From a virus (Duplodnaviria > Heunggongvirae > Uroviricota > Caudoviricetes): a DNA stretch of 23,586 nucleotides. Positions 20,396 through 23,586 of this stretch are shown here, piece by piece. Location: the IMG/VR virus record IMGVR_UViG_2778261031_000008. One strand, 5' to 3'. The first letter of the stretch is position 1, and every line of letters begins with the position of its first letter. A model generated the notes under the pieces. The model was not told the origin of the DNA, did not search any database, and worked only from the letters and a program-made list of their open reading frames with translations. The translations under genes and the position numbers were made by a program.

Positions 20396-20820
20396 TGGAA
20401 CTGTGGCTGACGGTGAACGGTAAACGCACCTGCGCCAGCGCACCGCTGGATCCGCTGACCCGCGCCGTGGTGATTTCCCTGTTTACCTGGCGGCGGGCGG
20501 AGCCTGATGACAACGCCGACGTCCCGATGGGATGGTGGGGGGATACCTGGCCTGCGGTACAGAATGACCGTTACGGCTCCCGACTGTGGCTGCTTCAGCG
20601 CAGCAAACTGACCAATCAGCTGGTGCAGACGGTAAGGGGGTATATCCGCGAATGCCTGCAATGGATGATTGATGATGGCGTGGTGTCCCGTATTGATCTG
20701 GATATCCGCCGCACCGGGATTAATGAGCTGGGTAACAGTATCACTCTCTGGCGTCGTGACGGACCGGTAATGATTTCTTTTGATGATCTGTGGAGTGCGA
20801 TAACGCATGGCGGACAGTGA
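20392..20820 (+). CDS. Baseplate protein (Mu gp46 / gpW-like)
   Basis: 142 aa; ATGA-type coupling with neighbours. Confidence 0.7.
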   Translation: MMELWLTVNGKRTCASAPLDPLTRAVVISLFTWRRAEPDDNADVPMGWWGDTWPAVQNDRYGSRLWLLQRSKLTNQLVQTVRGYIRECLQWMIDDGVVSRIDLDIRRTGINELGNSITLWRRDGPVMISFDDLWSAITHGGQ

Positions 20821-21865
20821 ATTTCAGCGCCCGACGCTGGCAGAAAATATCAGTATGCTCCGTAACGATTTATTCGCCAGGCTGGACGTCAGCGACACGC
20901 TCCGGCGCATGGATGAAGACGTGCGGGCAAAGGTGTATGCGGCGGCGCTGCATACGGTTTACGGGTACATCGATTATCTGGCAATGAATATGCTGCCTGA
21001 CCTGTGCGATGAGTCCTGGCTGGCGCGACATGCTGCGATGAAACGGTGTCCGCGCAAGGGGGCCACGGCTGCCAGCGGGTATATGTGCTGGGAAGGTGTC
21101 AGCGATGGCCTGAAGGTGACCGCCGGGAGTGTTATTCAGCGCGATGACCTGGTTCAGTACACGGCAACTGCCGATGCAACCAGCTCCGGTGGTGTCCTGC
21201 GCGTGCCGATCGCCTGCTCAAGTGCAGGTGCGGTCGGTAACGCTGACGACGGTACGGCATTAATCCTGGTCACGCCGGTGAATGGTCTGCCGTCTTCCGG
21301 TGTGGCTGACACCCTTACAGGCGGATTTGATACTGAAGAGCTGGAAACGTGGCGCGCCCGCGTCATTGAGCGGTATTACTGGACGCCGCAGGGCGGGGCT
21401 GACGGGGACTATGTCGTCTGGGCTAAAGAAGTGCCCGGCATTACCCGCGCATGGACATACCGTCACTGGATGGGAACGGGGACTGTCGGTGTGATGATTG
21501 CCGGCAGTGACCTGATTAATCCCATTCCGGAAGAATCAACGGAAACGGCGGCAAGACAACACATTGAGCCACTGGCCCCGGTGGCAGGCTCTGATTTGTA
21601 TGTGTTCAGGCCGGTGGCGCATACGGTGGATTTTCATATCCGCGTGACGCCGGACACACCGGAAATACGAGCCGCCATCACTGCTGAGTTGCGTTCGTTC
21701 CTGCTGCGTGATGGTTATCCGCAGGGAGAACTGAAGGTGTCGCGTATCAGTGAAGCGATTTCCGGTGCGAACGGGGAATACAGCCATCAATTGCTTGCAC
21801 CGGCGGACAATATCTCCATTGCAAAAAATGAACTGGCGGTTCTGGGGACGATTTCATGGACGTGA
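20807..21865 (+). CDS. Baseplate J-like protein (Mu gp47-like)
   Basis: 352 aa; synteny and size typical of baseplate wedge J proteins. Confidence 0.8.
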
Positions 21866-22440
21866 CAAACGATGATTACATCTGTCTGTTGTCGGCACTG
21901 CTGCCGCCCGGTCCGGCGTGGTCAGCCAGCGATCCGGCGATTGCCGGTGCGGCACCGTCATTAACTCGTGTTCATCAGCGTGCGGATGCCCTGATGCGGG
22001 AGCTGGATCCGCGCACCACCACCGAACTGATAAATCGCTGGGAGCGTCTGTGCGGCCTGCCGGATGAATGTATTCCCGCAGGGACACAGACCCTTCGCCA
22101 GCGTCAGCAACGACTGGATGCGAAGGTTAACCTGGCGGGCGGCATCAATGAGGATTTTTACCTTGCACAGCTTGCTGCCCTGGGCAGACCAGACGCTACC
22201 ATCACGCGATACGACAAAAGCACGTTCACCTGCTCATCGGCCTGTACTGACGCGGTGAATGCGCCGGAATGGCGGTATTACTGGCAGGTCAACATGCCAG
22301 CCGCCACCAACACCACCTGGATGACATGTGGCGATCCCTGTGATTCCGCACTGCGTATCTGGGGTGACACCGTTGTCGAGTGTGTGCTTAACAAACTCTG
22401 CCCGTCGCATACCTACGTAATTTTTAAATATCCGGAGTAA
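21856..22440 (+). CDS. Tail protein (Mu gp48 / gpI-like, DUF2313-type)
   Basis: 194 aa; immediately upstream of the tail fibre gene. Confidence 0.7.
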
Positions 22441-22443
22441 TCC

Positions 22444-23169
22444 ATGCATCGTATAGACACGAAAACCGCGCAGAAGGATAAGTTCGGCGCGGGTAAGAAC
22501 GGTTTTACCCGTGGTAACCCCCAGACTGGCACTCCTGCCACCGATCTGGATGATGACTACTTTGACATGTTGCAGGAAGAACTCTGCAGCGTGGTGGAGG
22601 CATCCGGTGCCAGCCTGGAGAAAGGGCGGCATGACCAGCTGCTTACCGCACTTCGTGCGCTGCTGTTAAGCCGCAAGAATCCGTTTGGCGATATCAAATC
22701 GGATGGTACTGTGCAAACGGCTCTCGGAAATCTTGGTTTGGGAACAGCAGCAACCAAAAATGTTGGAACCGGATCTGGTCAAATCCCTGACATGTCCAGC
22801 TTTGGTATGTCGCGAAACGGACAAACTATCTGGGATATTCTCCCAAATGGTATGATTCGACAGGCTGGCATTGTGACACTGACACCAGTTGGTAACTTCA
22901 ACGCGCAGGTGCTTGGTGGGGTGACGTACTACACCCATTACTACAGGGTTAATTTCCCCAGAGAATTCCCAAACGCACAATTAGCAACGCTGGCAACACT
23001 AGCGAGTTACGGCTTTTCGGGCCAGTCATCAATGGCTGGAAGATCACTGGCAACGGATCGCGATACTGATTCTGGCACTGACGTATCAAGAACGCGATTC
23101 ACTGTGGCGTATACGACACCCTATATTGGCGAAATACCGACTTTGCACTTTGAAGCAATAGGATACTAA
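22444..23169 (+). CDS. Tail fibre protein with conserved N-terminal anchor and AT-rich, probably exchangeable C-terminal receptor-binding part
   Basis: 241 aa; N-terminus [40 protein letters not shown] typical of phage tail fibres; GGAG RBS; composition becomes AT-richer from about 22700 onward. Confidence 0.8.
22722..22746. other. Candidate invertase crossover site (gix/hix/pix-like core AAATC-TT-GGTTT) at the constant/variable junction of the tail fibre
   Basis: CTCTCGGAAATCTTGGTTTGGGAACA resembles Gin/Hin-family sites (AAACC-NN-GGTTT core) as I recall them, with mismatches; coincides with the compositional break. Confidence 0.3.
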
Positions 23170-23171
23170 AT

Positions 23172-23405
23172 ATGGAAAATATGTATTTCAGCCCAACGAC
23201 CGTTGGTTTTTATGTTTCTGAACAAGAGCGACCTGATGATGCAGTTGAAGTCTCGCCAGAGGTGGAGGCATTTTTGAGGGAGTGTGTTATCTGGGGAGCG
23301 GATACATTTAACGTAGAGCGAGATGCAGCAACGGTGACATATCCAACAGAACTGCTTGAATATGTCACCACCTACAACGCCCCCGTTAAATATCCTGCGG
23401 ATTGA
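23172..23405 (+). CDS. Short tail fibre assembly (Tfa)-like protein, N-terminal-type domain only
   Basis: 77 aa; YFS...GFY...DAVEVSPE pattern like Tfa N-termini; lacks the conserved C-terminal WKKYRVLL motif; 3' end overlaps the convergent minus-strand Tfa fragment. Confidence 0.5.
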   Translation: MENMYFSPTTVGFYVSEQERPDDAVEVSPEVEAFLRECVIWGADTFNVERDAATVTYPTELLEYVTTYNAPVKYPAD

Positions 23406-23586
23406 CAGGCCATACGGGTTTTGCTGTATCAACGCGCATCAGCAGGACCCGGTATTTTTTCCATTCAGATAACGCGTCGGTTTCCTCATCCGTCGCGATA
23501 CCGGCATCAACCGCATCCTGTCGCCAGGCGATTTCAGAGTCCGCTTGAGCCTTTAAGCTTAATTTCCTGTCTTCTGCAATAGCCAT
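23386..23586 (-). CDS. Tail fibre assembly protein, C-terminal fragment (5' end lies beyond the window)
   Basis: C-terminal motif [20 protein letters not shown] matches the conserved Tfa C-terminus (lambda Tfa ...[23 protein letters not shown]); the ATG at the window edge is probably not the true start. Confidence 0.75.
   Translation of the reverse strand: [66 protein letters not shown]

Follow-up and report, generated by a model that had tools for sequence, protein, structure and literature searches.

A probable frozen relic of an e14-type invertible tail-fibre segment at the right end of an SfV-like prophage

The window (the whole stretch of 23,586 nucleotides analysed here) is the late region of a prophage that belongs to the lambdoid myoviruses of the SfV/SfIV/SfII/SfI/e14 type; the kinship among these phages has been described before (PMC3636060). 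Its DNA is 97-98% identical to vB_EcoM-720R4, SfIV, SfII, SfI, and SfV across 47-76% of its length; for the four Sf phages the match covers 47-72% of the window and extends from the terminase gene into the constant part of the fibre gene. The baseplate genes upstream of the fibre are Mu-like, with Baseplate_J and Phage_Mu_Gp48/YmfQ as well as Gp45 and Gp46; they carry domains of the Mu Gp45/46/47/48 type. The final constant baseplate gene ahead of the fibre gene is ymfQ, and 'YmfQ family protein' is the annotation of the baseplate wedge gene across all E. coli relatives examined. The features of the locus are collected in Table 1.

Table 1. Features of the tail-fibre locus at the end of the window.
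Feature	Coordinates	Strand	Basis
ymfQ, Mu gp48-like baseplate wedge gene	21856..22440	+	Pfam Phage_Mu_Gp48, E 1e-26
Tail-fibre gene, 241 aa	22444..23169	+	ORF list, PHROG 1396, Pfam PF21882
Putative relic of the left crossover (pix-like) site, degenerate	22721..22748		Position at the constant/variable boundary of the fibre gene
Accessory gene, 77 aa (RefSeq WP_001340317.1-type 'hypothetical protein')	23172..23405	+	ORF list, homologues
3' fragment (C-terminal half) of tfa', the second, inverted assembly gene; 66-aa ORF	23386..23586	-	Pfam Caudo_TAP

The 241-aa protein is identified as a tail fibre by matches at both of its ends: residues 1-101 match PHROG 1396 ('tail fiber protein', E = 7e-65), and residues 133-241 match the Pfam family Gp53-like_C (PF21882, E = 8e-7) with a score that exceeds the gathering score. 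Its N-terminal part (approximately 22444-22732) is constant and common to phages of the SfV/SfIV/e14 type; its C-terminal part, which contains the Gp53-like_C domain, is variable and is the receptor-binding part. Homology to SfIV, SfII, SfI, and SfV ends within the fibre gene at 22743-22753, precisely at the crossover-like sequence, and homology to the fibres of P1-like phage-plasmids begins at 22759-22760; from there to its end (22759-23586) the window is 95% identical to these plasmids.

The two short ORFs that follow the fibre gene converge and overlap by exactly 20 bp (23386-23405). The layout given in the preliminary description (a fibre gene on the plus strand, a short plus-strand ORF, and a minus-strand Tfa C-terminus, with an overlap of about 20 bp) is thus reproduced, in all its coordinates, from the ORF list and the sequence. 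Shortly ahead of the overlap, within the 3' end of the 77-aa ORF, lies a 14-nt inverted repeat (GGTGACATATCCAA / TTGAATATGTCACC, 23333-23369; 13 of 14 positions complementary, with a 9-nt loop).

Homologues of the 77-aa ORF number 34 and come from Escherichia, Citrobacter, Enterobacter, and Phytobacter, with identities of 59-97%. Almost without exception they measure exactly 77 aa, and their alignment contains 22 invariant columns. In every context examined, including the intact segments of Sanji, Res13-Lact-EB12-05, and AR_0119, it occupies the position of the assembly gene after the same fibre tip, and it is a real, conserved small gene. The label 'Tfa-like', under which it had been described, can be kept only tentatively: similarity to PHROG 188 ('tail fiber assembly protein', E = 8e-5) is confined to residues 1-31 and to the N-terminal part of that family, and Foldseek searches of BFVD with its AlphaFold model return marginal matches (best E-values of 0.02-0.04), one of them, at 0.04, to a 60-aa 'tail fiber assembly protein' of Pantoea phage LIMEzero; Pfam yields no match at E <= 1, BLASTP against an intact Tfa' gives an E-value of 0.2, and Foldseek finds no structural relative of the model in the PDB (best E-value of 2). 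The model itself has a pLDDT of 93 and the topology strand-strand-strand-helix-strand-strand-helix. The protein probably serves as a minimal assembly factor for the gp53-like tip. A bolder idea, which is possible but against which we would set the odds, is that it represents an uncharacterised minimal type of tail-fibre assembly or capping protein, replacing the canonical Tfa for gp53-like tips and having a small alpha/beta fold without a solved structural relative; if true, the frozen cassette would constitute a compact, portable two-gene host-range module that moves among SfV-like, lambdoid, P1-like, and other myovirus tails. Either way, this conserved accessory protein is the sole mildly new item at the locus.

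The minus-strand ORF matches the Pfam family Caudo_TAP (PF02413) with an E-value of 1.5e-18, over profile positions 67-131 of 131, which is more than a chance match; it is the C-terminal half of a tail-fibre assembly protein from the Caudo_TAP family. Only part of a family member is present: the full-length profile match that characterises the family is absent here, and the frame upstream of the matching part is unrelated sequence. We also considered whether the 77-aa ORF and this fragment could be the halves of a single Tfa, split by a local inversion. This was rejected, because intact segments hold a 77-aa ORF of the same length beside a complete 136-aa tfa', and because the homologues of the 77-aa protein are all of about this length.

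The putative crossover site at the constant/variable boundary matches the left pix site of the intact segment in HeN100 at 22 of 26 bases. Its last 16 bases (22733-22748, TTGGTTTGGGAACAGC) agree with the 16-bp inverted repeat of e14 (TTGGTTTGGGAGAAGG; PMC12529663) at 13 positions, as compared to 15-16 in E89, HeN100, and SfIV. In a shuffle control, a match with three mismatches arises by chance in 14 of 100 shuffles; the identity of the site is thus based on its position and on the homology of its surroundings, not on its match score. It is the sole crossover-like site across the window and 20.7 kb of the contig described below, in which repeat and mismatch searches found no inverted partner for it. 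At 22726-22800, a patch of about 70 bp (22 residues) diverges from the alleles of E89, Sanji, SfIV, and the P1-like plasmids; it coincides exactly with the crossover site and the bases that follow, which suggests that a different fibre gene donated it through gene conversion. In e14, experiments have established that inversion needs both inverted repeats, the removal of either abolishing it, and that Pin enzymes are able to act in trans (PMC12529663). A single degenerate site, as present here, can thus not support switching.

For the DNA beyond the edge of the window, an exact look-up of the 241-aa protein returned four contigs, one of which (NMJI01000024.1 from GCA_002511505.1, 61 kb; hereafter L003) is 100% identical to the window over positions 20600-23586, at 2,987 of 2,987 bases; window position 23586 corresponds to position 11143 of L003. 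In this contig the frame of tfa' is still open past the edge, but the homology to Tfa runs out at ...PTLEEL, some 10-20 bp past the window and upstream of the window-edge Met, and the translation further on is unrelated sequence. The fragment is followed by about 290 bp of unrelated DNA and then by a hairpin and a P-arm-like sequence (11459-11560), which we take for the sib/tI and attP-arm sequence of lambda. From 11720, only 577 bp past the window end, host genes follow in a row; their domains and lengths point to torT, torR, torC, torA, torD, cbpM, and cbpA. The preliminary description had expected the other half of the segment and the serine invertase just beyond 23586, and had proposed to look there for a second minus-strand tip, an inverted copy of the site, and an invertase of the Gin/Pin/Hin family; L003, identical as it is to the last 2,987 bases of the window, contains none of them, an outcome that the description had itself named as a refutation. 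It has no resolvase-domain gene within 9.6 kb downstream and no second fibre tip downstream, and a tblastn search of the window with PinE gives nothing better than an E-value of 7. A trans-acting invertase or a distant partner site may exist elsewhere in the source genome, outside L003.

The nature of the missing piece can be read from the DNA directly past the point where Tfa homology stops. This stretch (approximately 11155-11280 of L003) is repeated in nearly all E. coli genomes, about twice per genome, and matches DNA that starts 0-28 bp after the stop codons of Pin-type invertase genes or pseudogenes. In PSS-04, the matching DNA sets in at the very stop codon of a pseudogene for a Pin-type invertase, the protein of which ends in ...STLYKRFPVGDK; in E2348/69, an HTH remnant of an invertase precedes it, with about 28 bp between the stop codon of the remnant and the start of the match. 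Both genomes continue with an intS-type integrase gene on the opposite strand, and in L003 the next stretch (11281-11438) matches the 3' end of such a gene. The relic thus retains both flanks of what it has lost: to the left, the 3' half of tfa', and to the right, the post-invertase spacer. Measured against the intact segment of Sanji, tfa' is short of about 190 bp, and the 507-bp fibre tip, the right crossover site, and the 555-bp pin gene are gone altogether; the loss adds up to about 1.3 kb. At the join (marked here by a slash), the tfa' parent reads ...GCTCTTCT/TTCGTTGGAGG, the post-pin parent ...TTTGTCT/AATGTTGGAAGCC, and the product ...GCTCTTCTAATGTTGGAAGCC; the parents have a 3-bp TCT microhomology in common, with GTTGGA nearby, which would fit illegitimate recombination. 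The identical junction is found in four complete E. coli genomes (E89, 19KM1863, 23CRST010, and strain 600) and is thus inherited, not an error of assembly.

The right end of the prophage shows some further peculiarities. The 3' fragment of the intS-type gene lies between the post-invertase spacer and the att arm, as a second recombination scar at the prophage end. In E89, the prophage ends in a lambda-type attR (GCTTTTTTATACTAA) adjoining ybhB-bioA, and near-identical prophages are thereby seen at two attachment sites: at torT (L003 11459-11720) and at the lambda attB core GCTTTTTTATACTAA next to ybhB-bioA (E89, record L001, 8800-9020). Both have a lambda-like P arm and a sib/tI-like hairpin in common.

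Intact counterparts of the locus occur in close relatives. E. coli Sanji and Res13-Lact-EB12-05 contain the YmfQ gene of the window, a fibre of the 241-aa type, and the 77-aa ORF, followed by a full tfa' (136 aa, minus strand), a second gp53-like tip (minus strand), and pinE (plus strand); in five more complete genomes, the match to the window stops where it does in these two, as judged by the extent of the match only. AR_0119 carries the same pair of cassettes and a recombinase behind a different myovirus baseplate. E. coli HeN100 shares this architecture but has different cassettes, and its pix sites are clear. Its order is ymfQ, fibre, tfa (plus strand), tfa' (minus strand), gp53-like tip (minus strand), and pinE (plus strand), with inverted crossover sites CTCTCGAAAACCTTGGTTTGGGAGAA and TTCTCCCAAACCAACGTTTATGAAAA. 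In the Sanji (L010, 4724-4749) and AR_0119 (L008, 5063-5088) records, the left crossover site reads ...AAACCTTCAATTGGGAGAA in place of ...AAACCTTGGTTTGGGAGAA; the invertases of both are intact. In three further complete genomes, EC7 among them, the constant fibre part continues in frame into what is the silent tip B of the Sanji-type segment, which would be consistent with inversion, though no proof of it. The layout can therefore rightly be read as the left half of an invertible segment, in that the locus is homologous and syntenic to intact e14-type (Pin) segments.

These considerations suggest, with a probability that we put at roughly 0.87, that the locus is the frozen relic of an invertible tail-fibre segment of the e14 P-segment type (Pin/Gin/Cin family), located at the right end of the prophage. 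Its ancestral layout would have comprised the constant fibre part, the left crossover site, tip A with the 77-aa gene on the plus strand, tfa' with tip B on the minus strand, the right site, and pin. A deletion of about 1.3 kb would then have run from within tfa' through tip B and the right crossover site to the end of the invertase gene, removing the 5' half of tfa' and the invertase gene in full, so that the remaining 3' half of tfa' would adjoin DNA usually found immediately past the invertase stop codon; that the junction arose in a single deletion is what we infer, the TCT microhomology lying at the join. As a result, the late operon would read from ymfQ through the 241-aa fibre gene to the 77-aa gene, and only one fibre would be expressed, the 241-aa protein with its gp53-like tip, together with the 77-aa accessory protein; host-range alternation by inversion would no longer be possible. 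Of the features by which Din-family switches are recognised, homology and synteny with intact segments is present, through Sanji and Res13-Lact-EB12-05 with their pinE and AR_0119 with its recombinase. Of two opposed fibre cassettes, each with an assembly gene, cassette A alone is complete, cassette B being reduced to the last 66-72 codons of tfa'; of two inverted flanking crossover sites, one is left, in degenerate form; and an adjacent serine invertase of the Pin/Gin/Cin type (about 185-190 aa, with resolvase and HTH domains) is missing. The description of the locus as a switch cut by the window edge thus holds for its ancestry, but not for a working state at present: it is a fossil, which gives way to host genes shortly past the edge.

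That the switch nevertheless works, with its second half and invertase just outside the window, would explain why the layout equals the left half of the intact segments in close relatives and why a crossover-like site sits at the constant/variable boundary of the fibre gene. It is very improbable, however, given that L003 lacks invertase, second tip, and partner site and enters host genes within 577 bp of the window end, that tfa' is truncated, and that the remaining site has three mismatches in 16 positions to the e14 repeat, against none or one in the intact relatives and SfIV. Slightly less credible still is a truncation produced by the assembly of repeats or of an invertible region in mixed orientation. 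Three short-read contigs with the same fibre gene do break 60-110 bp past the window end, in DNA that occurs about twice per E. coli genome; the 61-kb NCBI contig, however, crosses the junction into host genes, and the same junction recurs in the four complete genomes. Somewhat more room, though still little, is left for the notion that the 66-aa ORF is a functional stand-alone mini-chaperone, consisting of the Tfa C-terminal domain only. Its 66 codons are free of internal stops, it has an ATG start with a GAAGAG stretch upstream, the gene caller predicts it as a gene, and domain-only PHROGs of about 78-88 aa exist, of which phrog_3792 and phrog_2341 match that part of an intact Tfa'. It lies, however, antisense to the late operon, with no promoter-like site in the 470 bp upstream (the count for the region being at chance level); its counterpart in the P1-like plasmid pE2-2 has an in-frame TAG, which is absent from the window; and in the E89 copy PGAP calls a truncated tfa pseudogene ('incomplete; missing N-terminus'). 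We infer that the fragment is a pseudogene and is not expressed.

A more serious contender concerns the history of the locus and leaves its present function the same: the tip, the 77-aa gene, and an already truncated tfa' could have been gained by recombination as a ready-made frozen cassette from another phage, for example a P1-like phage-plasmid, without a deletion in this lineage. We consider this unlikely, but by a much smaller measure than the preceding proposals. The 95% identity from 22759 onwards is to P1-like plasmids that themselves have a decayed tfa' and no invertase; past 23535, the tfa' allele is closer to that of the P1-like phage-plasmids than to that of the intact SfV-like relatives; the cassette recurs on tail backbones of four unrelated kinds (SfV-like, DUF2612 myovirus, lambdoid phi458, and P1-like); and the divergent patch over the crossover site points to recombination there. 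The truncation points differ, however, the P1-like plasmids keeping about 30 more codons of tfa' besides the in-frame TAG, and the DNA past the junction is not P1 DNA, but the post-invertase spacer with the intS fragment. An e14-type segment that was frozen by deletion within this lineage remains the preferred reading.

For annotation, a fixed tail-fibre module with a tfa pseudogene is the appropriate entry, and a phase-variable switch is not; where host range or phase variation is predicted for this prophage, only one fibre type should be counted on. The locus adds a further documented case to the decay of invertible fibre segments, beside SfIV, phi458, and the P1-like plasmids, and it shows fibre tips travelling as small cassettes between unrelated tail types. 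Segments of the e14 type, when inverted in trans by PinQ/PinR, can serve as an anti-phage defence (PMC12529663); a copy that has no second repeat can take no part in it.

Among known systems, the closest is the P segment of e14 (stfP-tfaP / tfaE-stfE / pinE in K-12), with which the locus shares ymfQ upstream, the constant N-terminal fibre part, the family of the crossover site and its place in the fibre gene (TTGGTTTGGGAGAAGG in e14, TTGGTTTGGGAACAGC in the window), gp53-like tips, and converging assembly genes; the intact relatives of the prophage are moreover annotated with pinE. Unlike e14, the prophage has no second tip, no 5' half of tfa', no right repeat, and no pinE, and inversion is therefore impossible; its cassette also uses the 77-aa accessory gene, whereas a canonical Tfa has 136-200 aa. 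In the G segment of Mu (S/U, S'/U', gin) and the C segment of P1 (cin), a constant 5' fibre part is joined to either of two tips by site-specific inversion, each tip having its own assembly gene and the two assembly genes converging in mid-segment. The overall logic is that of the ancestral layout proposed here, but in the variable part no sequence relationship to Mu S/U can be detected, and the locus lacks an invertase; the P1-like plasmids that share its cassette likewise have none beside it.

Other decayed copies occur in the same group of tails and beyond it. A literature search on decayed SfV/e14 segments found nothing specific. In SfIV, as here, the convergent tfa pair has lost the tip and the invertase that would follow it; their place is taken by an IS element (in the SfIV record, L014, 612-3336, the convergent tfa genes are followed by an ISEhe3-type IS). 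The fibre tip and the accessory gene differ from those of SfIV, SfII, SfI, and SfV, and, in contrast to the Shigella Sf phages, the prophage has no gtr genes at the corresponding position and is located beside torT, not thrW (PMC3636060). The P1-like plasmid pE2-2 and phi458 share with the window the tip, the 77-aa gene, and the 3' end of tfa', at 93-95% identity and with the same 20-bp overlap, but both are disrupted independently: pE2-2 has kept about 100 codons of tfa', with the in-frame stop and a truncation point of its own, and in phi458 a complete tfa' precedes IS1 and a partial invertase. In the pE2-2 record (L002, 2776-6909), fibre tip, 77-aa gene, and the longer tfa' remnant are followed directly by holin genes, with no cin-like invertase, making this an independent frozen copy; in the phi458 record (L009, 4920-8717), the IS1 lies between tfa' and the partial invertase gene. 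The locus described here is thus a system of an already known kind, a decayed member of a long-known family.
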